A stretch of DNA of 64,000 nt from Lepidodermella squamata (taxonomy: Eukaryota > Animalia > Gastrotricha): the NCBI GenBank assembly GCA_047495785.1, contig JBLDXI010000016.1, forward strand, positions 496,001 through 560,000, given 5' to 3'. The translations under genes and the position numbers were made by a program. Below the pieces are notes generated by a model that saw only the letters and a program-made list of their open reading frames with translations, was not told the origin of the DNA and ran no database searches. Positions 1-30,301 of this stretch are shown here, piece after piece; within the stretch, counting starts at the first letter, position 1; every line of letters starts with the position of its first letter.

Positions 1-890
1 ATTGTCTTTGGCAGCTAAATATATCAGATTATTGACTGAAAAAATGGATCATCGCGACGTTTGCGCCAAGTTGCACAAAGCGTGAACAATTGCGTCTAAG
101 ACCTATTAAAGCAGCAGGAATGGGGGTCAAAGCAATAAACCACTTCTAAACCGATCGAGAGATTCACGTGATGTTATATTAGATGAGAAGAGCGCTGTAT
201 AATTCCTTTTTTTGTAAACAATGAGATAATTCGTAAAAAAACGTGGGAATTATAATCCCAGGTATTTCACCATATTTATCTGAATTTTTAGGATCCCCGG
301 CTTTGAATAAGCTCTCGCGCGGCAGGGTTCTAGAGTTTCAGTACATTTTCGTGTAACGGGCTAATTAATTGTACATTAGCTGGCATGTCAGGCAATGGAA
401 TCTTGGAAATACCCTTCTCCCTTCTCTTTGATAGCAAGTTTAGGTCTTCTATGTAGCCTAGATAAAGCGAGTTGTTTGACTTGGGTTTTTAATGCGAACG
501 AAGCCATAAACGTAGGAATAATAATAAGGCGAGAAATTTAATGCTCACCCTTCTATTGCGCCAATTTTGGCGACGTTTCGACACATTCATGTGCTATCAT
601 TTATTCCAGGCAAAACAAAGAAATAGGCTACAACATATATTGAGTGTAGAAAAAAGTACAACAAAGAGGATCAAATAGATAGCTTAGCTTTGATAGAGTC
701 CTTTTGATTAATGAGGTTAGGCTTGACTGATTAAATGAAGAGAACAAGGAATCATGAATTTTTCAAACAGGAGACACCGGCTACTAGAAATCTTGGTATG
801 TATTTAGTCCTCAGTCTTCAATTTTGGCCGTGTAGACCATAACAACTCGTTATAACAATTGGTCAACAACAGCTATTTCTGTTGATACAT

Positions 891-3605
891 TTATTGAACT
901 CCCAGCACTCCTTGAAAATAAGATCCAACTTTGGTCCAAATTCCGTCCTCACCGAGCCTCCGCAACTCTATTGGATAAATTCCAAGCTTGTTTGACCCAT
1001 CGATGTTGTAGTATCGGCCATGCAAGCCATCGATCATCGTCACATTCGACGCATCCGAGAATAATTTTGAAACTGAGGCTGTCTTAAGATCCGAAATTGT
1101 TCGATTCTCTGTAAAAATATTTGTTCCAAATTTGATATGTTTTCAGCTCTAATTTCGTGAGACAGCATTCTCAGTGCTTCAGTGCTGGAAACCAAAACTT
1201 GAATCACATAAACTGCATTTTCCGAAATTTTTTTTATATTTCGAATTTTGTCACTATTTTAAGATCGGAGCAATTTTGTCTGATCTCATTGACGTATTGT
1301 TACTCAGTTTTTTCATTTATTTCTTGAACATATATGAGTTGAAAATATTACCTTGGCTTAGTCGATTCGCTATATTTCCTAGAATTTTCCCAGTGTATAG
1401 CACCAGATCGTAGCATCTTGAAGATGGATGCGTTTTGACCGGAGAATCGTTGCCCAAATCAGCAATTTTCGCGTTCATAACTTGATCAAACTCATCCGCC
1501 GAAAGCTGCGAACCATTCACGTAATCACGCGGCGAAAAAGTTGAAATAGGCGCCTCCGTAATAGAAACGACCGAATCATTCATGACTTGTCTCACGGCCC
1601 CATATGGACATTTTCTTTCATAATGATAACTCGAATGCCCAAGAGCGTCTTCCGATTCGGCACCTGTGACTAGAATTGTAACATTTGGCCCGTAAAGTCC
1701 GTAACGAAAAAGTTGACAAAATGCATCGTAGAGCGAAGCAACGTTAACAATAATCAAATTGGGATTCTGCAGTCGCAAAGCCTCGCCGTAGTTATAATCG
1801 CCAGAAATGTAATGTCGCCGCGCAGTTATATTGCGATTCGAAAATCGTCCAATTAAGGAAGCTTCAAACTAAAGTTAATATTTTAAAATTAAAACAAATC
1901 GTGGTTGGAAATTTTGAAATAAAAAAATCAAGAATTTTACAGTTTCGAAGTGCCTATTTGTACATAATTTTCAAAAGTGACCTACTTGTTATTTCACGAA
2001 TTTTTAGGGGTTTCATGGTTAGGATTAGGGTTGGCGTTGGGGTTCGTTTTGAAAAAGCGAATGTTCAAATGGGCAAAAGGTACCACATAATTATATGCAA
2101 ATACGAGCACCTTTCAAGTTTTTATAATTTCAAAAAGTTCTAAATTTTGAACTTCAAATTTATTTAAAATATTTTTATCATTCGTGCTTGGAAATTTTAA
2201 AAATTCTCAACATCGATTTTTATTGAATTAAATTTAATTAAAAAATAATAATTTATAATTGTAATCGGGTCTACAAATTGATGATATTTACCTCTCTGCA
2301 TGCAGTTACCGAAACATCAGTGACAACGGCGATGTTAACGGCTTTTTTTGTTACGATTTTCATCGCTATCAATTTTTCAACGAATTGCGTCATGACGTCA
2401 GCAGCAAAATCGGATATATAAGGCACCAGAGCGCGAACATTTTCCAATCGATCACGTCCAGCCGGAGCGTAGTAGCTGACCTAAATTCACGGCGTGAATA
2501 GTCAATTTTCAGCTAAACTTAAGGAGGCTTGCCATGGTTATATTGAAAGCTGAAGCGACCCTCGCAAGATTGTTGCGCTCTGTTGATCGGAAGCAGTCGC
2601 CCAAGGTCAGATGAATAGGTAAGCGATCGGGGTAGTCAGGAGATGAACTCCAGGTCTTGAACGTTCTCGAAATTGCCACTGAAGCCTGACACTGAAACGA
2701 AAAAAATCCCATCAAAATTACACGTAAGACAAAAGTGCTAAATCTCTCTCGAAAGTTTCCGAGTTGTTACTACTAAATAAATAACACAGTAACTATTTGA
2801 ATATGGATTCCGATGTTAATTCTTGCTAATTACATAAAATTACATGAAATTGTCACTGCAGTACTGCGGAGAACAATGGGATCCAGTGCTATTGTTCAGC
2901 GCAGTACCCGGGCCGCCGGGCTCGGGCCTCTGGAATCGGGTCGTCGGGCTTGGGTCGCCGGGCTCGGGTCATCCTACAACCAACGCCCACCCCGACAATT
3001 TTACCAAGTCCCGGCCCGAGCCCGGCAGCCCGGGTACTGCGCTGAACAATAGCACTGGATCCCATTGTTCTCCGCCGTGCTCTGGCTGGCACCTTGGCCG
3101 GCCCGTGTGCGATGAAGCGTGATTCTCTCGAATTTATTAAATTTACAGTAAACGTCGCATACGGGCATGTTTTAAACCGGCCCGAGCGCAGAGCGGCAAA
3201 TCAATGCTACCCGTCTGCGTACGGGCCGGCCGGAGCGCGTACGGGCCAAAATCGGGCTCGGGCCCCAACATTACCACATACCGCATCATCTAACAACTCG
3301 AGTCGCAGTTCATAGCCAGGCAGCCAATTCGGGTCCATGTGCAATCGTTCGAGAGCGATTTCCATAGCTTTCGTGCACAGCAAACCGATAGGTTTGCTCG
3401 TGAACAAAGTACTGTAGGTTACAGCGGCCGTCATTGTCACAATTTTGCTCCTGTTGCTTGGCGCCTTGAAAACGTGCTGCTGCAACGTAGCTTCCATCCG
3501 GCTGTACTTTGTTATTGGCGTAGCACTCTGTTCGTAGCTGTGAACTAATCCGAAGAATAATGGGAGACAACCGCTGGTTATCGTTATCGCAATCAAAATA
3601 TTCAT
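891..3605 (-). CDS. VFT-A: secreted Venus flytrap (ANF-receptor-like) domain-only protein, class C GPCR ectodomain paralog, about 468 aa
   Basis: Exons 3605-3282, 2691-2533, 2480-2292, 1868-1352, 1108-891 splice in frame. Signal peptide MNILIAITITSGCLPLFFGLVHS. It shares CxxAMEIALxRLHxDPxWLPGYxLxLELxDD, YGLYGPN and CYDL motifs with the 7TM paralogs in the window. The stop TAA overlaps AATAAA and no TM exon follows. Confidence 0.8.
1950..2110. mobile_element. Small MITE-like insertion with degenerate TTAGGG-like core in intron 3 of VFT-A
   Basis: Imperfect TIR gtgcctatttgtacataatt / aattatatgcaaatacgagcac; internal ggttaggattagggttgg; absent from the homologous intron of VFT-B. Confidence 0.55.
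2866..3075. mobile_element. GC-rich foldback MITE in intron 1 of VFT-A
   Basis: Inverted arms of about 63 bp at 2866-2928 and 3013-3075 with one mismatch; absent from VFT-B intron 1. Confidence 0.85.
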
Positions 3606-4280
3606 TTAATACTGCGTTTTCTCTGTAATTCCAATATAATGGATTACAAATACTGCACAATGCGTGACCTAGTTAATTGTCATTTGACCTAAAGTATTCA
3701 AACAAGCTTATAAAGCTTATAAACTGATAGAGGATAGAGCGATTGATGTCGATTATCATTATGAGCATTTTTCTATTTTAACCGAAAATATTTGAAGAAA
3801 ATTCTGTTTTTTCACTCTTCCCAGGTATTCTTTGAATTTATAGGATTTCCGGATTTGAGGAAGCTCTATTGGGGGAGACTTTCGATTTTCACTACATTTC
3901 TAGTTCCGGCTAATTAATTTGACGATCGCGTGCTCGTCTCCGTAAATTGAATCCTGAAAATATTATTCCTTCAATTATAGAAAACTAGGAGCTTCGAATC
4001 TAGGAGAGATAAATTTATTTATCTCTGCTTCTAACATCCTGGAAAAATACGCGCACTATTATAATGCGCAGTTTTTTTGTACCTACACCCTACACTAGCT
4101 ATATTCATCTGCGTGGCCAATGAAAGTCGTCCCCCACCCAGTGGGCGGAGCTTAGACGGTCTATATAAGCCTTATATAGATCCTTATTATATATCTGAGT
4201 TTTTCTGTCCCTTATCTTGTAAGGGACCGAAAAGCTCAGATTATTTAGTTGCTGAACGACCGTCACAACCGTTTTGATAG

Positions 4281-5667: not shown

Positions 5668-7258
5668 GAAGTCGAAACATGCCAAGAGTCATTTTTTGAA
5701 TATTTATACGAATTTTAGGCTAAGCATGAATTCTGAATTGAACTTTCCGTCTGATGAAGAATGTTGCGCTGAATTCACTGGTGAATTTTCTAGAATTATT
5801 GATGATAAGTGTCTTCGAAATTGATAAAGACATCGAGCAAGTAATTAATTATGATAAACAACTTATTTTAGCCATAGAGAACAACATAAAGTAAACATCC
5901 AACTAGACAACGGTTAGAAGAAATTTTTAAAAATGATTGGCGAAATTTTTTACCGCCGATGGCTTCTTCAATCAATATAATCTTGTTGAACTTCAAGTGT
6001 TTCTTGAAGGAATGTTCCAGATTTAGTCCAGTCCTGCAAATGTCTCCTGCAGCGAGCCTTCGCAACTCAAGTGGATAGATTCCAAGAATTTTTGACCCGT
6101 CGATGTTGTAGTATTGGCCATGCAGGCCGTCGATCATCGTCACATTGGACGCTTCGGAGAATAACTTTAAAACGGACGCTGTCTTCATATCTGAAATTTG
6201 TCGTTTCTCTGAAAAATGGTTGTTAGAAAAAATCAAATGATGTATAATAACGCTAATATTAACAATAATTGACAGTCCTAGGAACTGGAACTTAAACCTT
6301 ACATTGCCCGATTATCTGAAATTGTTTAATTTATTGAATTGAAGATTTTTTCTCAATTTTCGGATCAAATAGATATTTTCTGAAGTCATTCGACATTTTA
6401 AGATAATTGTAATATGTTATCTAATTTTTGAAGTTTTGAACAAGAAAGTTATAAATTGATTACCTTGGCGAAGTCTATTCGCTATATTTCCGAGAATTTT
6501 CCCTGTGAATAGCACCAAGTCGTAGCATCTTGAAGCTGGATACGTTTTGATCGGAGAATCATCGCCCAAATCAGAAATTTTTGCATGCATTGCTTTATCA
6601 AACTCAGCCGCTGAAAGCTGAGTGGAATCCACGTAATTACGCGGCAAAAAGGAGGTGGTAATCGGAACCTCCGTAATGTGAACGACCGACGCAGTCATAA
6701 CTTGTCTCACGGCCGCCCGGGGACATTTCCTTTCGTAATAATAATTCGAATACCCAAGAGCGTCTTCCGATCCGGCATCTTCGACTAGAATTGTGACATT
6801 TGGCCCGTAAAGTCCGTAGCGAAAAAGTTGACAAAATGCATCGTAGAGTAAGGGCACGTTTAAGATAATTAAATTAGGATTCTGCCGCCGCAAAGCCTCG
6901 CCGTAGTTGTTATCGCCGGAAATGTAATGTCGCCGCGCAGTAATGTTGCGACTCGAAAATTGTCGGATCAAAGAAGTTTCAAGCTAAAGTAAAAAACAAT
7001 CGTGGTTGTAAATTTTGAAAACAAAAAACTGGATTTTTTCGATGATTTCATCAAATTTTCAGTTTTCATTTTTTAATTTATTTTTTATCATTTGTATGAT
7101 TGGATATTTGGAAATTAAAAATATTTGGAATTCAGATTTTTTATTGTTGAATTAAATCAAATTAGGACAAATTTTTAAAATAGCAATTCGGCTTATAAAT
7201 TGGTGATATTTACCTCTCGGTATGCAGTTACCGAAGCATCAGTGACAACGGCGATATT

Positions 7259-8508
7259 GAGGGTTGTGATCGAAACGAGCAAACATTTATTCCAGCCTAT
7301 TCCACGCTATTCCACGCTTTATCCCACGCTATTCCTTGATTAACTTGGCGAAACCTTCTCAATTACGAAAATTTTGCTGCAAAAGAGGTGATCGAAAGAA
7401 GCAAACACGCAAAAACGCACTCTATTTCAGAGTAGATTCGAAGTAATCGCGAATTTCTGCGAAAATAGCTGTAATTTATTTATTTTCGTCGATTTTTGTG
7501 GGATAAAACGAGAATTTTGGGGTAAAATCTGCACCCCAGTCCGGACTGTGTCATAAATTTGCTTCAAAATGAGCAAATCGAGTGAAAATTTCAGAAAAAG
7601 CTGCGATGATTCACCGATGATTCGCCGTAAAATTGCGCAACAGTTGACGTTTCGATCTAAAAAAGTCAATATTGCGTTTAGATATTACCTTTGCCTCCAA
7701 ACCTTGCCACCCGGCCTAGTGGCCAAGCAAGGTTAGCGCGACCTCTTACACGGTTCAGAGCTCAACAAAGCACACCTTTAATAATCGATTTTCTGGCCGT
7801 TTTAGTAATCACGTGAAAACATGGATATGAAGATTTGTGAACTAATGAATGAGCGTTGATCGTGTTTTTGGCTAACATCTTCACAAATTGGAGGCGTATA
7901 GCTACCGGCAGTCGGATTTTCAATAGCAGGGAAGTTGAGATTAATCAAGTTTTTGGGGTTAGTCATTCATCCGAAGTCGGCTCGAAACTAGCAACAACAA
8001 TATTGGGCAAAAGACATCATCCGAAAAACGTGTTAGCGGTTAGCGGCATTGAACAATGTCAACCTAACTTCGTTGTCTTCGTCACTAATGACACTAACCC
8101 TGCCTTTCACGATTTCAACACTCATTTCTATTTCTATTAGATATGATTCGCATTGAGATGAACACCCGCTGAAATGCGTCTTGTCCGGCTCCTAATTCCG
8201 TGACATTAAAAAATGAGCGAAAATACATGAAAATATGGTTCAAATTTTACAAAATGGCACTGAATTTGCAAAGTCAACCGGAATGCAGGCGTGCATTGTT
8301 ACAGTGTTACTTCATAATCGCGATTATTGCGCGTTATTGGGACCATTGTTACTCAACACAAGATAAATTGTAAATCTTAATTTGCCATCGAATTTCTTCC
8401 GAGAATAGCGCAAACCTAATGCCGGGACAAATTTACTGAGAGAAATAACAAATAATTCTCGAAAGCTAAAATGACACAAATTATTTGCTTCTTTCGATCA
8501 CAACCCTC
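7259..8508. mobile_element. Non-autonomous DNA transposon, 1250 bp, 3-bp TSD ATT (PIF/Harbinger-like), inside VFT-B exon 3
   Basis: TIR gagggttgtgatcgaaa at both ends; ATT at 7256-7258 and 8509-8511; the reconstructed empty site matches VFT-A (gcgat-gtt-aacgg). Confidence 0.9.
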
Positions 8509-8577
8509 ATTAACGGGTTTCTGTAGTACGCTATGCTCGAATTGGGTCATGACGTAAGCGGTTGAATCGGATATATA

Positions 8578-8770
8578 GGCAGACCGCCATAACAGCGAAT
8601 ACCCGAAACAGCGAACGCGACAAAACAGCAAAAAATCTAATTTGCAACATAACAGCGATTTTAATATGGCACATTACACAGCATTTTGGGGAGGATTTTT
8701 CGCTGTTTCGTCGCTTTCGCTGTTATGTCGGTTTCGCTGTTCTGCGCATTCGCTGTTTTGACGTCCTACC
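8578..8770. mobile_element. 193-bp Mutator-like MITE with 9-bp TSD inside VFT-B exon 3
   Basis: TSD ggatatata at 8569-8577 and 8771-8779; imperfect TIR ggcagaccgccataacagcgaat / attcgctgttttgacgtcctacc; internal aacagcga repeats; empty site present in VFT-A. Confidence 0.9.
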
Positions 8771-9785
8771 GGATATATAAGGCACCAGAGCGAACACATT
8801 ATCCAAGCGATCATTTCCGCTATTTTCTGCAGCCGAAGCGTAGTAGCTGACCTAAATTACAAGAGAATAAGTAGTTCGTTTTCGATCGAAATTAACGAGG
8901 CTTGCCATGGTTATATTGTAATTAGAAGCGACCCTCGCAAGCGTATTGCGCTCTGTTGATCGGAAGCAGTCGCCCAAGGTCAGATGAATTGGTAAGCGAT
9001 TGGGGTAATCAGGCGATGAACTCCACATCTTGATCGTTCTCGAAATTGCCACTGGAGCCTGACACTGAACGAAAAAAAATCCCATCAAAATTACACGTAA
9101 GACACAAGTGCCGAATCTCTCAAGAAAGTTTCCGAGTTTTTACTTTCTAAATAAATGAGAGTCTTTAGTATGGATTCCAATGTAAATTATTGCTATTACA
9201 TGAAATAAGAAAAATTTACGATTTCAGAAAAAAATTGCTTAACTGCCTATAATCTTAATTTCTCGATTTGCCGTTTTCTTCGTAATTCGTAAAATTACCC
9301 AATCATCTAACAGCTCGAGTCGCAATTCATAGCCAGGCAGCCACATCGGGTCCATGTGCAATCGTTCGAGGGCGATTTCCATAGCTTTCGTGCACAGCGG
9401 ACCGACGGGTTTGCTCGTGAACCAAGTATTGTAGCTTACAGCCGCTGTTTTTGTCACGATTTGCGTCCTGGCGTCCTGCGGATAGAAACCGCGCTGCTGC
9501 AACGTATCTTCCATCGGGCCGGACCTTGACATCGGCGCAGCACTCTGTTCGTAGCTGTGAACGAATCCGATGAATAATGGCAGACAGACGATGGTTATTG
9601 CAATCAATAAAATATTCATTATATACCATACAATTATCTGCATTATTTCGAAAAAACGTTTACTATTACTTTATTACTATTACTTCCAAGCCCTGTTTTA
9701 CATGGAATTTGACCTAGGTATATCATTTTATTCGAACATTCCTGTTTTGAGAGCGAGGTCAAAGCAATAAACTGATAGAGCGATT

Positions 9786-11937: not shown

Positions 11938-12455
11938 ATTGATGTCGAATATCATAATGAGGATTTGTTTAACATTGCCATGATTTTTTTTTCTAAATTT
12001 TCGCTAATTTTACGCTCAATTTCAATTACCAGGGATTTTTCCAGAAATGTCTTCTGAATGTATAGGATTTCCGGATTTGAGGAAGCTCTCGTGTGGAGAG
12101 ATTTTCGTTTTTAGGTACATTTCGTGTTTCGAGCTAATTAATTTTACAATAGCAGAGGCATGTCTTGAGACTGAACCTTGAACATATTATATAATCAATC
12201 ATAGAAATTAAGGAGCTTCTGCATTCTGCATATATCCTTGAAAAACACGCTTGAGTTGTTTGACTGGATTATTTTTATTTTTAATACGAATCAAGTGATA
12301 AAAGAGTGACTAAAATCGACATTGCGTATACAAATCGAGACAAACACGTCTTATTAATGATGCGGTTTTCAGAACAATAACATGACAGACAAGAGGTGTG
12401 AAGCGTGATGTTTCGAAGGTTAACGAGTGAAAATTCCGAAAAAATCGACTCGTCG

Positions 12456-13856
12456 TTACAGCGTGCTCTGCTTTTCGACGGTATTCCAGCTATTGATGAC
12501 CTGAAAATATCGATGACATAATTTAATAAAACAGGCCGAAGTAAAATTTCAAATTTCAAAATGTATCATAGAATGGCTCTTTCACAATTTTTCAAAACAA
12601 AATCGAATTTTTGTTAAATTTTTTAAATTTCCAGAAATTTAAAATTAACTTTTAAATTCCGAAAAACTAGAAAAGATTCGAGAAAATTCAGATTTTTAAA
12701 TTATTTTTAAATTTTTAAATATTTTTAAACTGGAATTGAAATTTGAAAATAGTTGTTTTTTAATTTTCACTCACCCTGCGTTGAATTGTGTCGTAGAGCA
12801 GGACCTTGCTGAATGGCTCACCGGCGTCAGTATCGCCATCGACCTGAACCTCGTCGACAAAGGTGACCGGGCCCGGCTTGGGCGAGTCGCGGCCGTAGAC
12901 GTACAAGTAGCGGTGGCGAACAACCGCGTTCGTGATGATCGGCAGTAGGTTCGTTTCGACAATGTACTGCTGGCAGGCGATGATCGAATCGCCGGGGTTG
13001 GGCGGGTTCGCAAAGTCGAGTTTGTCCGCCATTTCGGTCACGCCGCGGGCGAGGCCGGACGAACCGGCGTCGGCCAGAAAACCGGCATTATCCTCAGAAA
13101 CGACTGCAGCTAAATTTGAAAAAATGAGAAATAATTTTAGGATTTTAGATGAAAAAAACGCGTTATATGGCTTTCAGAGAAATTACCTGAAAAATTCCAA
13201 ATGATCGACATCACTTTCAAGAATATTATCTATTTTTTATTCGAAATTCTTCATTCTTCATTTATTCTTGATCAAATCGTGGTCAGATTTTTCAGGTCAA
13301 AAGTAAAAAAAAAGTCGAAATTTTGTGAATAAATCGAAAAATTCACTGCTGAAAATCTGAAAAATTCTGCACAGTCAAAAATTCACTGGTGATTTTTCGC
13401 TGCGCAAATGTCGCCGCTAATTTGTCGCTCATGAAATGAAAAATTGCACAACCGTTGAAAATTTAAATTTGGTCACTTTAAATTTGATTTTCATATTTTC
13501 TCAAATTTTCGAAAATTCAAAAAAATCACTGAAACAAATTATTCAAATTAATATAAATAATTTCCTAGAAGTTGAAATAATTGTGTAACCCAGTTCCATC
13601 CTATAAAAATTTTAGGAGACATTTTTTGATGATCGGTTGAACACAGAATTCAAGTGACTTTTTTTTTAGATTTTCAAACTTCCTATGGTGTAATTTTGAA
13701 CTTACTGCTAGAGTAGACTTCAAAGTCCTTGTAGCGATGGGTCATTTTAACGAGGAAGCCATTCGGCGTCTGCACCTTTTCTTTGACCTCGAGATGCTCA
13801 TTTGGCCCCATGCCAAACAGGTCATTGACCTTTTCAGGTTGAACTTTCGTCGACAT
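12456..13856 (-). CDS. Stand-alone M4 (thermolysin/vibriolysin-family) propeptide-like protein, FTP+PepSY, about 176 aa, no catalytic domain
   Basis: Exons 13856-13706, 13109-12775, 12500-12456 with canonical GT-AG sites, in frame; AATAAA about 180 nt downstream. The spliced protein LFGMGPNEHLEVKEKVQTPNGFLVKMTHRYKDFEVYSSTAVV..GLARGV..LYVY..FVDEVQV..EPFSKVLLYDTIQRRVINSWN resembles vibriolysin/LasB propeptides along its length (recognised from memory). No HExxH motif. Confidence 0.7.
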
Positions 13857-15006
13857 GTTATCAATTAAATTATATTCTAAAATATTGCATAATAAACAAC
13901 AAATCGAGCTGATTAGGTTCGGAGGAGTTGTTGCGTGGATCATAGGTGAACGTTTACCGTTTTTTTTGCACCGATTCTGAAATTTGATATGAGTTAATGA
14001 GACTGTAATTGTTGCAATAATTCTTGCTTTAAAAATAATGGAAAAATGGAATATTTTCAAATTTCTATAGCAGTGCATGAAATTCGAGCTAATAGAGAGT
14101 GTTCACATTATTTAGACTTTGATGTTTGTTCACATGCCACATGCAAATGAGCAGCACGTGCTCATCACATTGGCGCCACGCAGCATCATCTGTATGGACG
14201 CTTCATTCACGAAAACAATGAGGCCGATGGATGAACTCGTTACGGACACAATAAAGGCGTAAACAAAACGATAGCACTGAGAGTACTAGTACTATATGAT
14301 ATCGCATTTAGCAGTTCATACCGAATTATTCAGAATCAATAGTAAATACCGGGAAAATTCCGTAACGAGGCGTAACTTTGGACGAATTGCCGAAGAAAAA
14401 CGAAAAATTTGAACTAAAAGTACGCGCAAATCTTTTTTTTTAAGAATTTTAAGAATTTTCAAACCTTTTTACTAAATTTTGAAAAATTTCAATTCATGAT
14501 TTTTTGGCTGATTTTCAGCAAATTTACACTACTTCTTCTAATAAGGAAATTTTTTTTATTTTTTTTTCATTTTATTTTTTTAAATTGTTTACCACATTTT
14601 CTATTATTAGCAACTTGATTTTTTTCCCACATAATTAGCGCTCACCGAGGTGCTGCTTGGCTGACAGAAAAAAATCAGAATGACATGTCATTTTAATTAA
14701 TTTTAAACCGCTCAGACATCAGGCGGTCACGGGTCAGCGGTCAGTCACGCGGCTTGTGTGGTTAATAAATTGGCGGGTGACGTCGATGCGCGTTTTCGAG
14801 GTTTAAACCCCGACTCACCTACACGGATTCGGGAACAACTTGGTAATTAAATTCGGGCAATTTTGTTATAGTTGGACGAAACGAATTCTGCTGTTTCACG
14901 GATCACGGGTCATTATAGCAATTATAGCAGATATAGGCATCAGCGGTCTAATTAGCGGCATTTAGACAAGTTATATATCGTAAAATTGAAGTTAATTAAT
15001 GACGCG

Positions 15007-15092: not shown

Positions 15093-15705
15093 ATGCCACT
15101 TTTTCGGATTCTGGCACTTATTTCGGTATTTGGTGGCATTCTGGTCGAGGCCTATAACAAAGACTTGAACGTTCAGAATTTAATGGCAGGTAAATTCATA
15201 TTTTTTGAATTTCGTTGATTTTTAGAAATTCTCTACTAGGAATATTCAAAAAATTTCAAAAATAATAAACTCATTTAAATAAAAAAAGAAAAGATATTTT
15301 TTCCGAATTTAATCAAATAGCTTTAAATTAAGATATTCAAATAAAAATTCTGAATTTAAAAAAAATGGATTTAAAAATTGAAAAATTAAAATTGAATTCG
15401 ATTTTAAATTTTTATTTTTATTTTTTTCAGAGCGATTCTGGAGGTTACTGATGAAAAATCAGTTCAAGGAAGCGTTCAAGCAATTGCGGCTTATGGTTCT
15501 GTTCGAAAAAGCAACTTCGAAACAGCGATGTCAGGAGGCGGTTGTCAACGACGCGAAAGCCCTGTGCCGCAACGCCTCACCGCACCCGTTCAGCCTGTGG
15601 CGAAAGCAAGTGGCGCTTCAAATCATGTCGCCCGATCGACGGCTGGCTGAAATCACGCGAGCCATCGCCGAATCTCGCGATGTTGTTCGGCAAGGCTCGA
15701 AATGA
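15093..15705 (+). CDS. Secreted SPDRR-family orphan protein, copy 1 (about 123 aa)
   Basis: Exons 15093-15189 (signal peptide, phase-1 intron) and 15431-15705; TATA-like element at about 15049; AATAAA at about 15799; three paralogs in the window. Confidence 0.9.
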
Positions 15706-17557
15706 TGGTTTTACGGAGAATTTTGCTCTGATAATTTTCGTATGAGAATTGTTTCCTGGTTGAATGGTTTTGTTTTCAAAAGCTGAAATTTAAACTAAAA
15801 TAAACTTTATTTTCTGTGCGCTGCAAGAAGCGTATGAGTAATTCACTAAATGTAATTTTCGGACAGAATCAATAATTACCCTTTCAAAAAAAATTATTCA
15901 ATTCCAAATTCCTTGAAATACAAAATTATTGAAATTCCATAACTTGGCGAGGAAAGCACCACGAGCAAACCACAAATACCTCAGCTTTGCTAATGTTTTC
16001 ATACCTCATTCTATGCAAAATTCGCATCACTCTCTGATATGCAATTCGACCTTGATTTAAATTTGCACACTGGATTGTACAAAATGTCCCCAGTTGGGTC
16101 CGAATCGAGCCGAATGTTATACCCTCAACCTTAAAGATGGTGTAACACATATACCATGATTGATAATTGATAACAAAATTTTTACCATAATTTTTCAGTG
16201 ACAGGAATTTGGCTCCGTAATTGTGCCGTATTATTTGTGGCAGTATAATGCCGTAGATATCGAAGATATCAATAAGATTCACACGAATTTATGTTCCATT
16301 TTTCTTACGCTAATTTGAGAAACCAACTTTTCCCGGTCGACCTATGTCGTTTTTTGAGACTCATACTGGACCTGGAATGGGAACGGACTGGGAACGGCGT
16401 AGGCATTGCGCGAAATACGGGTAGAATGGGGGTATCTTACCCCACAGTTCGCAAGGCCAAAGATGAAAACCCCAAACATACCACATGGGGGACCCTTTGG
16501 TCACACAATTTGGGCCCGAAAATACCCCCTAGTACCTCAATTCAGAAAACAGCCGGCTGGAGTATGCGGTGAAACTTTCGTCCATTTCAAAACTCCGATG
16601 CATAAGTACACTACTTGCGAGTGCAAGTTTCCAGGTCAAAAATTTAGTGCTTCTGATGCTGCTAACTTGTTCGATTGCACCTGATGTGAGAAAGCAAGGT
16701 GTCGTCCTAAAAGTTGGTTCAAACGAGCTGGTATATGAGAACCTCCGCAGCCATTGTGAGCATCATGTACAATCATCGGCGCCCGCAGATTACAGCGGAT
16801 CAGGACATCCCAGACGTTGCCCTCACAATTCCGCCGACCTTCTCGATGCTGAGATCGAGCCTCGAGATCGTGCATCAAAACATGCATGGACATTTAAATA
16901 AATGGACATGTAGAAACGGAAGCTTTCACCGAGTCGTTTCCTTTATTTCACGAGCAATCAAGCTGGTTCTTGCTGGTTCTTCAGCGCCACAAACGTCATA
17001 TTTTTTCTGTTGAACTTCTTCGAAAGCTCGGCTAGAAATAACAAATGAATATTGCACAACATCTTACAATTATCTTTCTAGCTGCGTCGTCTGTTGAGGC
17101 TAAATTGCTATGGAACAGTTCGATTCCGACGAGAGTTAGGTCCTCATCTTACAACGCTAACGACTCGTCGCGCGTAACTATCAGCCTGCTGCTTTCGTGC
17201 AATTATGCGGGAACAAACAATCCCCAAGGCCCTATTTGCTCTGAAGGAATTCGCTATGCTCTTGACAGCATAAAACGACAGCCGAATCTGCTACCCGGAA
17301 TCGAACTTGCCATTGATCCAATCGATGATTTCGTAAGTTGAAGGCTCAAAAAAACCGCAGATTCCCCGTAATTGTAACCTATTTTAGTGCAGCGAACCTT
17401 TAGCGACCATGAGGTTTTTCGCTGAGATGCGGAGGAATGACCAAGTTCCAGATCGATTTCCTCTCATCCTGTATCCTACTTGTTCAGTGCAATACACCTT
17501 GGTAAAAACTCTGCAGCATTACAACTTCATGAGTGTAAGTCGAAATATGGATTTGGG

Positions 17558-17643
17558 TATCCTTCACTTGCGTATCTGAGCCAAGGATAAGGATAAGGTT
17601 AGGGCTATGGTTAGGTTTCGGGTTAGATACGCAATTGAGGGTA
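17558..17643. mobile_element. Tiny TIR element with TTAGGG-like core in intron 2 of GPCR C
   Basis: Inverted ends cttgcgtatct / agatacgcaat; core ggttagggctatggttaggtttcgggttag. Confidence 0.5.
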
Positions 17644-17699
17644 ATTCCTAGATAAATATTTTGGAGACGGAAGACATAAGTAGAAGTCTGTTTGATCTC

Positions 17700-17830
17700 C
17701 CAGCCAGAGAGCGATGTAGGACAGTAGAACTGGTTAGGATAAGGAAATCGACATAGAGGGTCGATTGGCCTTTGGCCTTTTGGTTTGATTTGAATTCAAC
17801 TTGCGGACCGATTGAACTGGTAGGGATGAT
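17700..17830. repeat. Dispersed repeat; reverse-complement copy at about 21471-21546
   Basis: Blocks agagagcga..taggac..agaactggttaggataagg and gaccgattgaactggtagggatgat recur inverted. Confidence 0.7.
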
Positions 17831-20800
17831 GATGACTGATTGTACTCCAACTTTAAAATTCCGAACCCCGTCCGAAGCGCGTCCAAATTTGTTTATAAAT
17901 CCAACTCAAGATTATCGTCTTATGCTTATCGCCTTACTCTAATATCTCGATTTTCAGGTAGCTCATTGGAGCAGTCAAAATGATGTTTTCACGCAGAGGA
18001 ATCGTTACCAGAATTTATTCGTTGTATCACCCCCGTTGGCGATTTCTACGGATGGTATTACCTCATTCATGACAGCTATGGGATGGAAGAAGTTGTCCTT
18101 CGTCTCAGATATGAAAGATTCATTATACGCAAGCGATATTTACACTCAAAAGTTGCTGGAACAAAAGTTTAACGTCACATCATCCGTTCGATACAAAATT
18201 CCACTTCTGAATGGTCTCATACCAGATTCTGAGAGCATACGCGCTGTAGTGGAGGAATTGAAGCGAAACGATGCGAGAATCATCAGTATAGGAACTGCTT
18301 CACCCGCGCGCTTTGCATGCTAGCTTCATCGCTACAAGCTATTCGGGCCTAACTACGTTTTTTTCGTGTCTATGTTAACTCCTTTCCAGCCAACTGATCC
18401 TTTGCGGTTTGACTGGTGCACGGAGGCCATGTTGCGGGATTCATTCAACACGGCTATACAAACACGATGACCCTGGGCATGGGGAATCTAGCCGATTCTT
18501 TCGGGAATTCAGGGTTAGACCTCGATTCGGCGCTTATGTCCAGTATAGATAATCCCCAGACAAAAAACAGCTGGGCAATCCGCCAGTACACGTATGACAG
18601 TGTGCTTTTAGCAGCCCACGTTTTAAATACAACACAGACGTTCCTGCGGCAGGAAAATCAGTCACTTATCGACTGGGTGACTACTGGCAAGAACTTCGCG
18701 TCCAACGGAAGCTACATAATCGAAAAAATTAAGGAGGCGCTTTTTTCGACTCGAGTTACAACAAAGACGGGGGAGATAGCCTTCGAGCGAAATACTACCC
18801 TCAACTCAGGCGGAAATGTGATTTTCGGATACTTCAGGCTTCAATTACTGCCTAACAGCTCGAGCCCACTTGCGATTCCTTTCGCGACATTTGATGCAAA
18901 AGCTAAAAAATTCGAGCTGATACCTGGGAAACTAAAATGGAAAACTCTCAGCGGCAATGCTCCGCCAGATTCAGTCAGGATTGTTCAAATCGTTCTCCCC
19001 TTAATTTCAACTGAGGCCTACGTTGCAATTACAATCCTGTCATGCCTCGGAGCGTTCACAGTGATATTAGCCACTTGTTACCAGTTGAAATGTCGAAAAT
19101 CACCGCAGGTCATGAATTCTACACCAAAACTAAATGCGTTCATTTTGCTGGGGGATCTATTGCTTCTAAGCTCTAATTTGGTCCAGTTACCTTGGTATGA
19201 AGACGGCTTTGCTAGAATTTGCATGGCATCTTACGGTCTTTTGTTTCTTGGAATATTCTTCCTGGTCGCAGCTATGGTTGGTAAGTTGGAGCTTGCCAGA
19301 CTACTGAGTTTGACCAGCCGGCAAAAAGGAAGTATGTCCAGAGTGATAAGCTCACTAAAAATGGGACGCAGCCCCAGAGCAACTGCCCAGGAAAGCATCA
19401 CGAAGGCAGCTTCCACCGTGAGAAAAATAACCTCAACTGCCAACATTGAAGCTAAATTTGCTTCAATGCATAAGCTTGTTGTAATCGCGATTTCGACTGT
19501 TTTCGTCTTTCTGGTCGCTCTATTATCGATTTGGTTTTCCCTTGATCCAAATGATATGACTGTGACTCTTAATTCACCTCAACTATCAACCCTCGACGAT
19601 TCACTAGCATATCAGGAGGTCGTTTTCGAATGCTCTATCGGAGATTCTTACCTAAGCAAAGCTGCCATTGGTGTAATTTGTGCAATTTTCGTGATTCTAA
19701 TGCTTCGAGGGTCACTTGCTGCTTACAAAGTTCGATCGGTAAGCGATTTTTCTAATTTAAAACATAGATGGATGATATTACTCAGTTTAAATACCTCCTC
19801 TTCATTTCCAGATAACCTTGGAGCGATTGAACGACCTGAAAGCAATAGTTAAATGCTTTTACGGGACAATCTTGCTGTTAGCTGCTGGCGCTGTGATTGC
19901 GGCTGTTATCTTCACGGAGCAGGCTAAGCAACGTTTGGCTTTGTCAGCGATGATTCTATCATGTGTAACGCTTAACTTGGGGCTCATTTTCATACCCCGT
20001 AAAACAATCGACGTTCAGCGAATCAACTCGAGCCTTTGAATGGCCAATATAAATATCATGAACATATATATACTTTAATGATCCAGCTATTGAAAGCGGG
20101 ACCGGGCGCTCTCATCTTCTCTGCGTCACAAATTAAGAATTTTGAATTATTTGAGTATATTTGAGTATGAGGATGGGCGAGTTTGCAGACGAGTTTCCAG
20201 GTGCAGGAATGAACAGGTTTTCGATTTCGATATTTATCTATAGTAAACCTGTTGATTAAACACTGGATTTCCAATCAGGGCTAGTTTGAAATAAATCGTA
20301 ACAGATGAGAGTTAAATGCGCTTTTCTCCTCTACTAATACAACTTTAATTACAGATGACACCTTTAATGATCCAATGACCGCGCAGCCTAAATAGTTGAA
20401 TAATGGACATCGTGTGAACTGAAATAGTTTTAGCCGGAAAATAGCAAAAACCTCTACGCCAGCGGACAATTATTATACCTTGGAAACTCAATCTAATAAC
20501 GCACAGACGGTGTCATGGTTGGCTTGCATGTCGTCAGTCATAAACAGTTTGAGAAGTGACGCAGGTGCGCATTTTCACCGAATTCCCCGAATTCATGATT
20601 TATTCCGGACAGGTTTGTTGTCAATGTGTTATATATTAATAGCCTTTATTCTAGACTAAACTTTGGCGCAACTTAGCAGACACCACGCAACCTGCCACGA
20701 CACGTTAGGTTAACAGTGCTACGCTAGACCAACTAGATCGAAGGGAGAGATATGTTTCGAACTGATAACACCTGTCGTAAGACGTAACACGAGTGCTTAC

Positions 20801-22251: not shown

Positions 22252-23062
22252 ATGACTCCTTTTCGAATTATCGCGCTTATTGCTTTCGCAGGTATTCTAG
22301 TTGACGGCTATCACAATAAATACTTGATGGTTCAGAAGCTGATGGCAGGTAATTTTTAAATGAATTTTCAGAAATATTCAAAACCTCAAACCTAATTATA
22401 AACCCTGAACCCTGAGACCACACTCCATCTCTCGAATCGAACCTTTTTGAGGCCTGAAACGTTTATTCGTTTTCCGGAAATCGCACATTTTCAAACGACA
22501 GATGGTTGGATTTCCACCTTTCCACCGTGCTCACCCCAACAGATTGAAACCAAACGTGCTGAGAAACGGAATTACATGTTCGTGAATTTCAAAATATACT
22601 TTTCAATTCCAAATATAATTTGATTCAACTCCCATGAAAACAGACCTTATAGTTTCTGTTACGTACAAAAGTACTTATTGAGTAAGAACCAAAAAGGAAC
22701 CTTTTGATTTCTTACTTCGTTTTGGTTTCTTATTTTGATTCAGCCTTAATAAAACATGATTTGGCATATTTTCAGATCGATTTTGGAGGCTTTTCATGAG
22801 GCATCAATTCAGGCAGGCATTCTTGCAATTACAGCGCATGGTCGTGCTTCAAAAAATAACATCAAAACAACGATGTCACGATGCGGTTCTCATCGATGCA
22901 AATGTCCTGTGCCGCAATGCTTCGCCGCACCCTTTCAGCCTGTGGCGAAAACACGTCGCGCTGCAAATCATGTCACCCGACCGACGACTGGCTGATATCA
23001 AGCGAGCCATCGCCGAGTCTCGGGCTGCTTTCACTAAAATGATGAAGAAGAACCAAGACTGA
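22252..23062 (+). CDS. Secreted SPDRR-family orphan protein, copy 2
   Basis: Exons 22252-22348 (97 nt, same as copies 1 and 3) and 22776-23062; sequence DRFWRLFMRHQF..C..LCRNASPHPFSLW..IMSPDRR. Confidence 0.9.
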
Positions 23063-24019: not shown

Positions 24020-24670
24020 ACCAAAACTCTCTCCTCCGCCAATATCATCAGTAATAGCTGCGCCGCAGGAGCCTCGGCTGCTTCACTGCAGCTTGTAGAA
24101 CTTCTTATGCACCTTTTTTCCTTCGCAATTTCATTATTTTTATTAAAGAAACACGTGTTTATTTTACATGATTCTCAGCTTCTTCATTTTATTCATTTTC
24201 TTACTTTTTACTACTTAAGGATTTTCTCGATCTTCGAAGGTTCGCTGAATGCGAATACGAAACCCGAATAAGATGAATTTGATATTTGATAATTTGATAT
24301 GAAGAACATTCTCAAGTATTTTGCTGAACATGAAAATTTAATGAATAACTTCGAATAAGAAAGATAGCTCAATGACAGACGATAGTATGTGTAATTTGAA
24401 GCCGAGTCGAATGCACCGATCCGCCTCGTCACAAAAGCTGGAACAATGGTTGCGTCCGGCGATCGCACGCGGCTGTAATTCCAATGCTCAACGTGGGGTT
24501 TTGAACGCAGTCAGCAATGCGCCGTATCTTATATACATACTCACGCTCAAAATATCCAACTAGTCGAATATATTTTTCAAAATAATATGACTCCCCCTCT
24601 TTTGCGTAATATCGAGAAATGCCGGCATCGCTGTCACCGTTTAGCGTTAGCTCATCCTTTCAGCTGCTGT
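24020..24670 (-). pseudogene. Decayed remnant of a PAN/apple-like gene (upstream region, start and 3' end)
   Basis: Reverse-complement similarity to 29230-29590 (upstream region, ATG TTC TTC) and to 29910-29970 (ctgcagtga..gatattggcggaggagag); the coding middle is lost. Confidence 0.65.
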
Positions 24671-25198
24671 TTTGTAGAGATGAATAATGCGTCTTAATCG
24701 AGTACACATCTTAGCTGCATGTCACGTGTAACGAGAGCCGAAAAAACCGAAACTCCCCGACGGATGCTTAACGGTGTAAATCCCTTAACGCATTTCCAAG
24801 GTGCGATCTTGGACCCTGGAGCTGCTGTCAGGGTTGGATAAAAAGATGTTGTAGTATTGACTAAATAACTAGCGATTACCACCAAAGACCAAAGAAGAAA
24901 AGCAAAGCGAGCATTTTTTGTAAGTTTATCGTTTATCCATTAAACCTATCAAATTTGACGAAACAGCGAGCTAAATTCGATACTTTGTCCTGTCTGGCCG
25001 AGTTGGAAGGGGGGTCCTGGAAGAGCTTTGAATTGGTCTCCTGTAAACTGTAAGGATCTCTCATCGTAAGCCACCAATATTTGGTGTAGTAAAGACAGTA
25101 GGTATCCTTCAAATTTTATTTCATCTAAAGTCACGTGACGGGCAATCAAGAAGACCTCTCATCCGCTCATATTCTAAACAGCAGTATCCTGTATCTGC

Positions 25199-25556
25199 TT
25201 ACTTCAGCAACTTCACTGCAGCTTGGAGTACTCCCAAGCCCCAAGCGGGTGAGGAATTGACATTCTTCGACGTGCATCTGTCGTACAACGTGCAGGTGGC
25301 TCCCCTACGATAATTCATCGAAAACGCCTTGCATTTGATGTTAGCCGCACAACGAGCCTGGCATGGTGAATTCATATATAGGCATCTCAACAATCGACGA
25401 TCCGCTACTACAATCCTTATCCGTAATCTTGAACACTATAAGAAAAACCACATTATCAATTGAAATTCCCCATATTCAACTCAAAAGATTGAACATGCCT
25501 GCAGATGAAGCCAGAGCGAAGATCATTGCGAAGACTAGTGCAACTTTTAAGAACAT
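25199..25556 (-). pseudogene. PAN/apple-like secreted protein pseudogene (paralog of 29578-29922)
   Basis: Signal exon MFLKVALVFAMIFALASSA. Relative to the intact paralog it has an 8-nt deletion (ctgcgcaa), a 7-nt duplication near the end, and a GC donor instead of GT. Confidence 0.85.
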
Positions 25557-26517
25557 ACCTAAGGTTTTGGCTGCAAATTAATCAATTGATTAATTACTTC
25601 GAAGATGGAAGTGTGCTAAATGACTGAGCTTCGTGTGTGTTGTGTCAGGCGAAGTTGAATGCATCCAACGGCCACGTCAGAGCAGCTGGAACAATCTTCG
25701 ATCCAAGCGATAACAAGATGCTATAACAACACGGATCAACGAGGGGGAACTCCAACGCAGTCAAAAATGCTTCGTCAATCATACTTGCATCCTCCAAGGT
25801 GCGAGCATTTGACAAACAGTTATGATTAATTCTTCTTCTTTTCCCATTTACATACGACATTCGAGAAATATCGCGAATATTGCTACATTGTTTCAGCTGC
25901 CATTTTGTAGGTGAAAATTAAGTCGCTGTAAGTCATTTCAGAACATGCGACATCTCAGCATTCGCTATTCCATCAAATGTTACTTTCCTTGTGAGAGATT
26001 CACGTGCAACTATTTCTGCTTTACCTTTAGACCGCTTTACCTATTCAGCTGCGAAAAACCAAACCCAAGCTTGCTCGATAAGACGAAAAAATGTTCACTG
26101 AGAGAAATTGATTACTGGTCAGATAATGAACGCATTAAAAAATTACTGCATATATTCCTGTTTTCAGATCTGATATTCAGGTGTTTGCAGCGATTAAGTG
26201 GAAATAAATCGTGCGAAAGTGATGTAGGAAGCTGGCGCCATTGCCGCGTAAAAATAGCGCGATTACAAGCACGGGTTATCAGCAAAGGTCGGAGTCAAAC
26301 CACTGTTTTTCCGAAGAAAAAATGACCCGAGTCGCAACAGGTGTGAGACAAGTTCGGCGCATGAACTGCGTTTCGCTGTTGTTAATTGCTGCGCGGATTT
26401 GCCTGAGAAAAAGTAGGCGTGAATTCGGATGGCAGGCACACGATAATACAAATACATTGCTTGATGCATTCCACGTCTTAACTAACGCTCATTTCAAGTT
26501 TGAAGCAATATTGCTGA

Positions 26518-28582
26518 ATGGCTATGAAGTTTTGTAGCAACATCTTATTGATTGTAGTGGCCGTAGGGTTGCTACTTGTGCACAGCCTGCCAACGACCGA
26601 AGCGTGGCGGGACGATGAGGTCTCAACAATAGACGACTTTTGGTGGTGGTTGTACACCACTTCTGAGCCCGTCACAGAAGCCGTCACAGAACCCTTCACA
26701 GAATCCGAAACAGAGCACCCTTGGTGGTGGGTGACGGAAGGACCCACCACAGAAGCCGTTACAGAACCCGTCACGGAAGCACCCACCACAGAAGCCGTCA
26801 CAGAACCCGTCACGGAAGCACCCACCACAGAAGCCGTTACAGAACCCGTCACGGAAGCACCCACCACAGAAGCCGTTACAGAACCCGTCACGGAAGCACC
26901 CACCACAGAAGCCGTTACAGAACCCGTCACGGAAGCACCCACCACAGAAGCCGTCACAGAACCCGTCACGGAAGCACCCACCACAGAACCCGTTACAGAA
27001 CCCGTCACGGAAGTACCCACCACAGAAGCCGTCACAGAACCCGTCACGGAAGCACCCACCACAGAAGCCGTCACAGAACCCGTCACGGAAGCACCCACCA
27101 CAGAAGCCGTCACAGAAGCCGAAACAGAGCACCCTTGGTGGTGGGTCACGGAAGGACCCACCACAGAAGCCGTAACAGAACCTGAAACAGAAGCACCTAC
27201 CACAGAAATAGCAACTGAACTGCCTACGACAGCTGCGTCCTGGAACCCAGTTACGGAGCAAGAAACCACGATCGAGCCAGAAAGCCCAACAACTGTGCCG
27301 TCGGCCGCTTCCTGTGACAACTTCCGCCTCGCGTCATCTCGCTCCATCTCGGTGATGGGCCACGAACCCCTGGTTTTCTATGGCGACTGTTTCCGTTCTC
27401 TTTGCGAAGCCACAATCGAGTGTACATTCAACGATGCGAAGCAGGGCAGCGTCCGCGTTTCCGGTCTCTCTTTATATTTTCACATTCTTTAGTTCTTTGC
27501 AAGCCAGTCGCATTTAGGCGTGTTAAATAAGGCGGTGGTATTTTAATTTTTAATTTTGTATCATTTTGAAGGTCTCGTGGAAGCGCCGCTCTTCTCCCCA
27601 CCGCGGGCCATCTGTTATGCGCCCTATCTGTACACGCTCGGCGACATGACTGTTGAGGTGAAGCTGCACTCGCCCAGCAGCCAGCAGCCTATCGATCTGC
27701 CGAAGGTCACGGTCACAGTCGAGCAATCTCGCCCGGTTGTCAACATGCAAATTATCGCTTCCGACAGAGTTACGCTCGTATATCCCGATCTGACGTCAAT
27801 TGCGCTGACCAGCGACATGAATGCTGTCGACGTCGCCTTCGTGTGGTTCAACCCGGAGTTCAGGACTTTCGAAGACAAGGAATCCTACGGATTCACCCAG
27901 TTCAAGTATGCTCCGTATAAAAACATTGAAGTTTCCCCGCCTGATCTCGCGTCACTCGGCATCAAGAAGGCGCTGCTCGCCTCGACCTTCGTTGCATTCG
28001 CCATCCGGCCAAAGCGACTCAGCCACGGCGGCCCCCATCCGTTCTACCCGAAAGCCGAGGTCTTCACACCCTTCGTGCCAGCCATGCATCTCTACCCTGA
28101 ACTGCGCAGCCTCAAGGCATCTGTTTGCCAGGCCTGGTATCAATGGACACCCAAGGTAAGACATGGCTTCTATATCTCGGGATCGATTGAGCCGTATTGC
28201 ATTATAGATCAATGCTCCGCTGAACTGCAGCAGCTCGAAGTCGTCGATTGACCGAAACTTCACCGGCAAATCATCGCTGCTGTACTCGAGCACTTACTCA
28301 CGAGCCACGCTCGGCAGCCAGGCCACCAATCCTCGCTACGAAACCGCGTCTCCGCAGGGTTACCACGGCTACGGTCAGGAATGCTACTACTACAGCGACA
28401 GCGGGCTGCTGGTGACCGACTGGCGCAAGGGCGCCGGTTCTGCACAGCTGCAGAGCACGTTCAAGGACGAGCGCGAGCACTACTTCGAGGACGAAGTGTC
28501 GTGGTACGCGTGCTGCCACGGCGAGGAAGCAGGTTCGTCGTGCGAAAAGTACTACAAAGCCCGCAAGGTCTTTGCACGTTAA
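26518..28582 (+). CDS. Secreted acidic mucin-repeat protein with SUSD2/MUC4-like (IPT-like + AMOP) C-terminus
   Basis: Exons 26518-27463, 27572-28155, 28208-28582. Signal peptide, T/E/P-rich repeats, and AMOP-like motifs CQAWY..GQECYY..G.L..HYFEDEVSWYACC..CEKYYKAR. No TM segment. Confidence 0.85.
26743..27205 (+). repeat. 39-bp coding tandem repeat (PTTEAVTEPVTEA), about 11 units
   Basis: Directly visible; interrupted and bounded by a duplicated HPWWWVTEG block. Confidence 0.95.
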
Positions 28583-29577
28583 TAAGCATGGAACTGCAAG
28601 GGAAAAGGAAGGACAGTTGTTTATTGTAACCTCAGTAATCAATTTTAATCAACTGAGAGAAGGCATAATAAATAAATTGACTTATTCTTGGCAAATCATT
28701 GAGTAACGAGTTTTTTTAATACATTGCTTCATTTGGCTCCAGCCATGATTCTCTACCTCCGTAAAATTAAAGTAAAATTAGAGGATGCTTTTGCTTAAAA
28801 AAGCTAAAGCTTTCGCCGAGCCTGCGACGTCGACTCTGACGAGGATTGGACGAGGATATCAGAATATGTTATCCGAAAAAAGCAAATATATCACAAATAA
28901 AAATACGACTCAAATACTGTGATAAAGCCGATATTATTTCAAATTTATGAATGTTTGGCCGTCATTCTACTTCGCGCGTTTTAAGACAGGCCACTTGCTT
29001 ACCGTTTGCAATAGTGAAAAAATACTGCCAAAAAGAGTAAATTTGCTTATTGCCGTAAGAAATTGGATAAGTACTGTGACAAAGACATTTAGCAGCCATA
29101 CTCAAAATTCATCTGTAGATTTGAAATTCGGCCTTGAGCCGTGAGTTGCAGCCTCATACAGAAATTCCTAGTGATATCAAACTATGATGTGCACCCGAAT
29201 TCGACGCATTATTCATTTACAAAAACACCGCAGCCCGCAGCTGAAACGATGCCGACATTTCTTGATATCACGCAAAACACGTGGGTAGTGGGGATGAAGT
29301 CATAATATTTTGAAAAATTATACTCGGTTAGTTGGGTATGTATGTAGAATGCAAGCATATGCTTGGCGCATTATTCACTACGTTGAAATTCCCCGGCGTT
29401 GAGCGTTGGCGTTAGAGCATGTTTTGATCGCCGGGCGCAACGATCGTTCCAGCTGCTCCCACGTGGCCGTCGAGTGCTTCGCTTCAAAACAGACTTACCA
29501 ACCATAGTCATTCAGCTTTCTTTCATTTTCGAAGTAATTACTTATATTCCTTTTTTGCCATAGCCAAACGCTTCAGT

Positions 29578-29922
29578 ATGTTCTTCAAAGCTGCACTGGT
29601 CTTCGTAATGCTCATCGCTATTGCTTCATCTGCTGGTATGTTTTTCTCGAGTTGAAGTTCGAAGATTTAAATTGACAATATTCAATTCATTAATATAGTT
29701 TTCACGAAAACGGATAAGGATTGTAGCAGCGGATCGTCGATTGTTGAGATGCCTATTTATGGATTCACCACTGCGCAATGCCAGGCTCGTTGTGCGGCTA
29801 ACATCAAATGCAAGGCGTTTTCGATGTATTATCGTCGGGGAACCACCTGCACTTTATACGACAGATGCACGTCGAAGAATGTCAATTCTGCATCCGCATG
29901 GGAATACTACGTGCTGCAGTGA
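29578..29922 (+). CDS. Small secreted single PAN/apple-like domain protein (about 93 aa)
   Basis: Exons 29578-29635 and 29699-29922; signal peptide; C..CQARCAANIKCKAFSMY..CTLY..C six-Cys pattern; downstream AATAAA. Confidence 0.8.
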
Positions 29923-30301
29923 AAAGACAGGACGCTGCTGCTTACGATATTGGCGGAGGAGAGAATTTCGGTTGCCCGTCAAGTGATAATTAAGAATAAA
30001 TAAACTGTGAACGTTGCCCTCTGTCTTCGCTAAATCAATGAAAAAATGAAAATACCGAGGTGTTCCCTGCCACTGGAACCACGAGACATTTAAATAAAAG
30101 AATTAAGCTAAAATTCCCTAAGGAGTACAAGTTACTACTAAATCAAGGTAAACTCGCCCGGTCTCGCGGAAACCGGCATTTGATATCCCGAGAAGTAATC
30201 TATATTTCTGTTCTTATCAATTATTTTCCAAAAATTCAACAGGAGTTCAAAGTAGGAAAAACCCAAAAAGTGGCCAAATTTAGGGCCCAGTGCTCTGCTG
30301 T

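Follow-up and report, generated by a model that had tools for sequence, protein, structure and literature searches.

The window (the whole 64-kb stretch of DNA analysed here) carries on its minus strand a spliced gene under purifying selection whose product is likely a stand-alone, strongly diverged bacterial-type M4 propeptide in an invertebrate. Judging from profile comparisons, the product very probably descends from an M4 propeptide, and it ends where the mature protease would begin. M4 proteases are major virulence factors, and to our knowledge few protein inhibitors of them have been described. We tentatively propose that this propeptide-only gene acts as a secreted inhibitor of M4 proteases, a proposal in which the binding step is one that we infer, and which we weigh below against other uses of the same protein.

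Gene structure and expression

The coordinates of the gene are given in Table 1. Splicing of the three exons yields a protein of 176 amino acids followed by a TAA stop, with both introns bounded by GT and AG, so that the gene structure proposed in the first-pass annotation was reproduced to the base. The stop and the polyadenylation signal that it had listed are likewise found in the DNA sequence, and the motifs that it had quoted (LxVKxxVxxPNG; GxxARGV; EP..LLYDT..RVINSWN) are present in the protein in the same order. The exons have a GC content of 0.47-0.61 and the introns of 0.28 (intron 1) and 0.20 (intron 2). The protein contains a single Cys in its 176 residues, and its mature part has no N-glycosylation site.

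Table 1. Coordinates of the gene, of its candidate 5' parts and of other features of the window.
Feature	Position	Strand	Description
Exon 1	13706..13856	-	151 nt; aa 1-51, N-terminal helix plus the initial half of the FTP-like region; covered by the X1 contig over 13706-13810
Intron 1	13110..13705	-	596 nt, phase 1, GTAAGT..TTTAG; interrupts the FTP-like motif; exactly absent from the X1 contig
Exon 2	12775..13109	-	335 nt; aa 51-162, remainder of the FTP-like region and the larger part of the PepSY-like domain
Intron 2	12501..12774	-	274 nt, phase 0, GTGAGT..TTTCAG
Exon 3, coding part	12456..12500	-	45 nt; final PepSY strand, conserved Trp167, 9 further residues, TAA
AATAAA polyadenylation-signal match	12274..12279	-	177 nt 3' of the stop; sequence only
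Candidate first coding exon	14244..14307	-	ATG and 21 codons, signal-peptide type; phase-1 donor GTAACG; in frame; not RNA-confirmed
T-rich acceptor and extension	13857..13878	-	AG at 13878-13877; CTAAT about 35 nt upstream; 20 nt, 7 more codons before the ATG
Long-exon ANF-receptor gene cluster	17042-20040, 39391-41223, 43571-45341, 53069-54846		a 7tm_3 region in one of them (class C GPCR-like)
Two-exon gene, 123-aa protein, signal-peptide-like start	15093-15705	+	divergent; exon-2 ORF without a Pfam match
Tandem duplicate multi-exon genes, signal-peptide-like starts	890-3612, 6045-9626	-	76-83% DNA identity
Tandem repeat in long open frames	26657-27207	both	324 aa on +, 299 aa on -; weak MORN match on -
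Inverted duplicated segments	25081-25796 vs 29343-30038; 24300-24630 vs 29247-29587		68-74%; one overlaps a weak PAN-domain ORF
Long imperfect palindromes	2860-3081, 31628-31936, 34192-34387, 39428-39572, 62915-63072		MITE-type look
Dispersed repeat just beyond the gene's polyadenylation signal	12050-12219		75% like 3829-3995 and 279-389

Two public sequencing runs cover the locus, here called X1 and X2; X1 is taken as RNA by guess, its nature not being on record. A 552-nt contig of X1 jumps exactly from 13109 to 13706, with intron 1 gone to the base, and its loose end is exon 3 sequence from 12469 onward. Since this contig lacks intron 1 and runs exon 2 into exon 3, both introns are spliced, in agreement with the gene model on the understanding that X1 is RNA. 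The stop codon itself lies outside the 30 displayed letters of the loose end, which run out 11 nt ahead of it, and X1 coverage ceases beyond 13810. All of the ten exon variants found in X1 and X2 are synonymous third-position changes, against a synonymous share of 0.23 for random changes. The gene is real and under purifying selection, and it is not a pseudogene. The X2 reads also show that a noncoding segment upstream of the gene (14095-14150) doubles in depth like the exons, while the introns remain at single depth; this segment is possibly a conserved regulatory element.

Relatives of the gene

A search of 1.84 billion representative proteins gave three matches, of which one, P0001, is a true homolog (61% identity over exon 2). 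P0001 shares a cluster with P0004, and both were found in metagenome contigs. The other two matches, P0002 and P0003 (E ~1e-4), were rejected as short repeats of unrelated proteins. P0001 and P0004 both read straight through the position of intron 2, with no intron there, and carry 16 residues past the conserved Trp, compared with 9 in the 176-aa protein. An acidic hairpin encoded in exon 2 (aa 136-145) is identical in the homolog.

Other searches for relatives added little. Word-based protein searching found nothing with exon 2 and P0001 alone with the alignment A2; DNA-pattern scans of metagenome and genome contigs revealed no relative; tblastn against plasmids gave matches only at E 5-6; P0001, exon 1 and A2, when compared with PDB sequences, returned nothing useful; and the ESM Atlas yielded no usable match to exon 2. 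With P0001 alone, the top ESM Atlas match was a PepSY cluster with a score of 0.78, which we treat as a lead only. A longer relative was found neither in 1854 candidates (a weak search) nor among the 1.84 billion representatives.

Homology to M4 propeptides

We built a profile from bacterial loci carrying a vibriolysin-type catalytic motif, 124 in number, using the 74 with a full M4 precursor. Compared with this profile, the spliced protein aligns collinearly from aa 6 to aa 173 with positions 46-205, at 13.6 bits and a single-comparison E of 1.1e-6, a weak score whose E would be ~0.03 when scaled to a Pfam-sized library. The signal is concentrated mostly in the FTP part. The alignment ends at the propeptide/mature junction, that is, at the maturation site, which bears out the earlier statement that the protein stops where a mature protease would begin. 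None of the controls reached 13.6 bits (0/5000 full shuffles, 0/5000 local shuffles, 0/2886 window chunks), the best of them scoring 5.7. Profile matches near 30700-31900 (4.6 bits) lie inside the shuffle range and were discarded. A global hhalign comparison gave a probability of 48% and an E of 2.8e-5 over 161 columns.

The reverse search, in which a profile of the three animal sequences was run against the 559 ORFs of the loci, 117 of them M4, placed M4 ORFs in all of the top 27 positions; these are not independent observations because they are related to one another. The best 20 domain matches listed all fall in the N-terminal propeptide region. Independent FTP sets also scored positively (5.9 bits for 27 thermolysin-type and 7.7 bits for 21 other sequences), but lower than 24 random vibriolysin-type subsamples, which gave 8.3-17.1 bits.

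Divergence from the bacterial family is considerable. Of the 25 columns conserved in at least 70% of the bacterial set, seven are kept, two of the 25 being signal-peptide columns that are left unaligned; the signature residues lost are R, Q, Q, G, P and G in the FTP part and R, P, A and G in the PepSY part. P0001 is 9-18% identical to the bacterial rows. The Pfam FTP model (PF07504) found no match at E<=1 in P0001 or when the exons were scanned apart, a setting in which intron 1 splits the motif, and the PepSY model (PF03413) found none at E<=1 in exon 2 or in P0001, which holds the whole domain, while the bacterial controls pass: two members of the profile tested in this way both carry FTP and PepSY above the cut-off. 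The assignment to M4 FTP+PepSY propeptides made at first sight thus stands on the custom profile with its shuffle and reverse controls, and does not extend to the Pfam cut-offs on separate exons.

Predicted structure

An AlphaFold model made from the three animal rows alone was poor (pLDDT 38.1). When 48 bacterial rows were added, and only then, P0001 was modelled as a helix on four strands with a mean pLDDT of 69.8. Of five trims of the bacterial rows that were tried, the one used put its helix in the same register as the profile does; because the trim was picked for this agreement, the guided model tests compatibility only. Foldseek returned nothing at E<=0.001, and the highest probabilities among the matches listed were those of the MCP-02 propeptide (0.54) and YpmB (0.47-0.51). 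VIA-align matches, all with Z<8 (best 7.8), comprised TraM, a designed cystatin fold, CD1622, YpmB, YpeB, cystatins and the M36 and MCP-02 propeptides. The two propeptides gave the longest alignments, 102 and 104 residues respectively, with a Z of 5.4 for MCP-02. Such matches are generic, being common to cystatin and NTF2-like folds and to PepSY proteins, and the model shows compatibility with the PepSY fold, not identity. The cystatin motif is QxVxG; it is absent from the first hairpin of the model, and membership in the cystatins was rejected on this ground.

It could be argued that the gene is a lineage-specific orphan whose likeness to M4 propeptides arose by chance or because both converged on a widespread alpha+beta fold, as would fit the low identity of P0001 to the bacterial rows, the poor model from animal rows and the lack of any Pfam, PDB-sequence or Foldseek match at the usual thresholds. 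We consider this improbable, given that the shuffle, decoy and reverse controls all point the other way, that three separate FTP sets score positively and that the protein is collinear with the propeptide from its start to the maturation site.

No catalytic domain in the gene model or the window

The first-pass annotation had noted no HExxH or M4 catalytic exon downstream, and within the window this holds. The three HExxH matches in its six frames all lie outside an M4 context, a full-length M4 profile matched none of its 2771 six-frame ORFs at E<=5, and tblastn of the 74 M4 proteins against the 64 kb gave nothing at E<=0.05. Neither the gene nor the window has the HExxH with a downstream Glu zinc ligand of an active M4 peptidase, and no catalytic domain is encoded in cis: the frame stops after aa 176, and in P0001 and P0004, too, little more than the Trp is left before the end.

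The stop codon overlaps a donor-like GTAACG hexamer (12459), which together with the end of the displayed RNA contig letters ahead of the stop leaves room for another explanation, namely that these exons form only the 5' portion of a longer pre-pro-protease gene and that the apparent stop lies inside an intron starting at this hexamer. A longer protease gene is very unlikely because the 13 acceptors between the stop and the next gene open nothing M4-like (none opens more than 29 codons) and an AATAAA comes after the stop. Further, the next same-strand genes begin ~2.8 kb downstream, and the two homologs likewise stop shortly past the Trp.

A candidate signal-peptide exon

The 176-aa model has no N-terminal signal peptide, and it had been remarked that no clear one was visible. 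This is probably wrong, as an in-frame candidate exon lies upstream (Table 1) whose product has a basic n-region and a hydrophobic core and brings the whole protein to 204 aa. The acceptor suspected just upstream of the ATG does exist as a T-rich AG, and it probably joins this exon. Among 22 possible first-exon joins this one gives the most hydrophobic N-terminus, and an exon of equal quality, by criteria chosen post hoc, arose in 1/1000 and 3/1000 trials of two shuffle tests and in 1/108 window tiles. In the 204-aa precursor the signal peptide and the first propeptide helix lie about as far apart as in the bacterial precursors compared. On these features of the sequence, secretion of the product in its 204-aa form appears reasonably probable, and the candidate exon probably fits a secreted role better than the 176-aa model does. 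A possible alternative 5' end is a short 5'-UTR intron with its donor at 13957, which would give a cytosolic 176-aa product. The ends of X2 contigs hint at a haplotype difference near 13861, within the proposed 5' extension.

Possible functions

M4 propeptides act as chaperones and inhibitors and remain bound after cleavage (PMC10017501 and PMC4282423, both in part). In the mechanism that we propose, an ancestral bacterial precursor of the vibriolysin type would have been reduced to its FTP+PepSY propeptide and a probable signal peptide, and the secreted stand-alone protein would clamp M4-type metalloproteases of bacteria that the animal meets. Three uses are plausible: blocking of microbial M4 proteases ranks first, binding of a new partner second and latching of a host M4 protease third. 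The microbial and the host M4 readings are favoured because both subdomains are kept at full length, and the new-partner reading because signature residues are lost and the acidic hairpin (aa 136-145) is both new and invariant. Counting against an inhibitor are the 7/25 columns kept, the generic fold match and a C-terminal tail longer than that of the processed bacterial propeptide.

The second use, which we hold doubtful, is that a propeptide-derived protein has taken on a new job, its scaffold binding a non-M4 partner such as a receptor, a metal or a different hydrolase, possibly via the acidic hairpin. Stand-alone PepSY proteins such as YpeB, YycI and BqsP/Q regulate non-proteases according to the accessible text of PMC4282423, most bacterial signature residues are gone from the protein, the homologous animal sequences share 61% identity and have fully conserved blocks absent from bacteria, and the modelled domain looks cystatin-like. 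Yet the protein retains the two subdomains with their spacing and finishes at the maturation site, as expected if the whole clamp is still needed, and the QxVxG of cystatins is missing in the first hairpin.

The third use, unlikely in our estimate, is a split host protease, in which an M4 catalytic gene without a propeptide lies elsewhere in the genome and its product is folded and latched in trans by this protein. Co-evolution with a private partner would explain the loss of general signature residues, and there is a bacterial precedent: in the genome of Simiduia aestuariiviva, which also contains the locus L004, a free-standing FTP+PepSY ORF (L126, a 262-aa frame) adjoins an ORF with an M4 catalytic region, an arrangement that suggests a split propeptide/protease pair. 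Against a split host protease, the catalytic domain is absent from the 64-kb window, no longer relative turned up in the 1854 candidates (weak) or the 1.84 billion representatives, and M4 terms are absent from supplements 1-24 of the 27 of a tardigrade genome paper (PMC5531438), which bears on the host only if the guess of a tardigrade is right.

We return to the preferred microbial-M4 inhibitor, for which IMPI of the moth Galleria mellonella offers a precedent as an animal defensive inhibitor of bacterial M4 proteases (PMC9002140, in part), and of which it would be a functional analogue. IMPI, as described there, is a small five-disulfide standard-mechanism inhibitor, whereas the protein studied here has one Cys in 176 aa, and hence no five-disulfide scaffold of this type; its fold is a different one, and it probably came from a microbe. 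The more ambitious version, that an invertebrate has kept the built-in inhibitor of a bacterial virulence-type protease as a secreted, intron-bearing immune protein, a propeptide decoy forming a second class of animal M4 inhibitors beside IMPI, is less probable than inhibition as such, and we offer it as a speculation.

Relation to known proteins and origin

Solved relatives of the best-matching bacterial propeptide are MCP-02 (3NQY/3NQZ), the pro-elastase of P. aeruginosa (8CR3/8CR4) and the thermolysin precursor (5A3Y). The protein resembles the propeptides of vibriolysin-type M4 zymogens in being collinear over aa 6-173, in its equal length and end point and in its probable signal peptide. 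It differs from them in keeping 7/25 conserved columns, in its longer C-terminal tail and in giving no Pfam match on its separate exons, while the gene differs from those of M4 zymogens in its spliceosomal introns, its place in an animal genome and its lack of a catalytic domain. With SspA, YpeB and YpmB (group 2 of Yeats et al. as given in the accessible part of PMC4282423) it shares a PepSY-type architecture, probably secreted here, without an enzyme domain, and the P0001 model matched the folds of YpmB, YpeB and CD1622 (Z 6.2-7.3). Proteins of that group, in the same source, are bacterial, often lipoproteins, and contain between one and five PepSY repeats, whereas here one FTP-like and one PepSY-like unit are found in an animal. 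The propeptide of fungalysin (M36; 4K90 chain B) is also eukaryotic and FTP-containing, and it matches 102 residues of the model (Z 6.2, rmsd 4.4), but it is fungal and attached to its protease.

The gene is integrated in animal DNA, as its introns, its splicing and its animal neighbours show. According to PMC7851659, hardly any M4 proteases are known outside bacteria, and our best-scoring propeptide set is proteobacterial; these two points make it likely, as far as sequence comparison goes, that the gene was transferred horizontally long ago and gained its introns afterwards. We infer a bacterial origin by such a transfer, with loss of the catalytic half in addition to intron gain. PMC6005172 lists a transfer of M13, not of M4, and a literature search at the level of titles and opening lines of abstracts, mostly outside the subscription journals, showed no animal gene for an M4 propeptide only. 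If true, such a gene would represent an unusual route of domestication, in which the inhibitor was kept and the enzyme dropped, and a natural scaffold for anti-virulence inhibitors. The gene also allows a direct test of an old idea about free PepSY-type proteins, namely that they regulate proteases in trans.

Genomic neighbourhood

The window is animal DNA, with ANF-receptor and 7tm_3 genes, a Cys-loop channel, a rhodopsin-type receptor, an M13 peptidase and a Quiver domain; the ANF-receptor cluster adjoins the channel, the 7tm_1 receptor and the M13 peptidase. The Quiver domain and the abundance of receptor genes with long exons would fit an ecdysozoan, perhaps a tardigrade. The longest ORFs of the tandem duplicate genes at 890-3612 and 6045-9626 were scanned and have no Pfam match at E<0.01. 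Finally, the two-exon gene at 15093-15705 has paralogous copies at 22769-23022 and 32041-32353, with a DNA identity of 74-80%.
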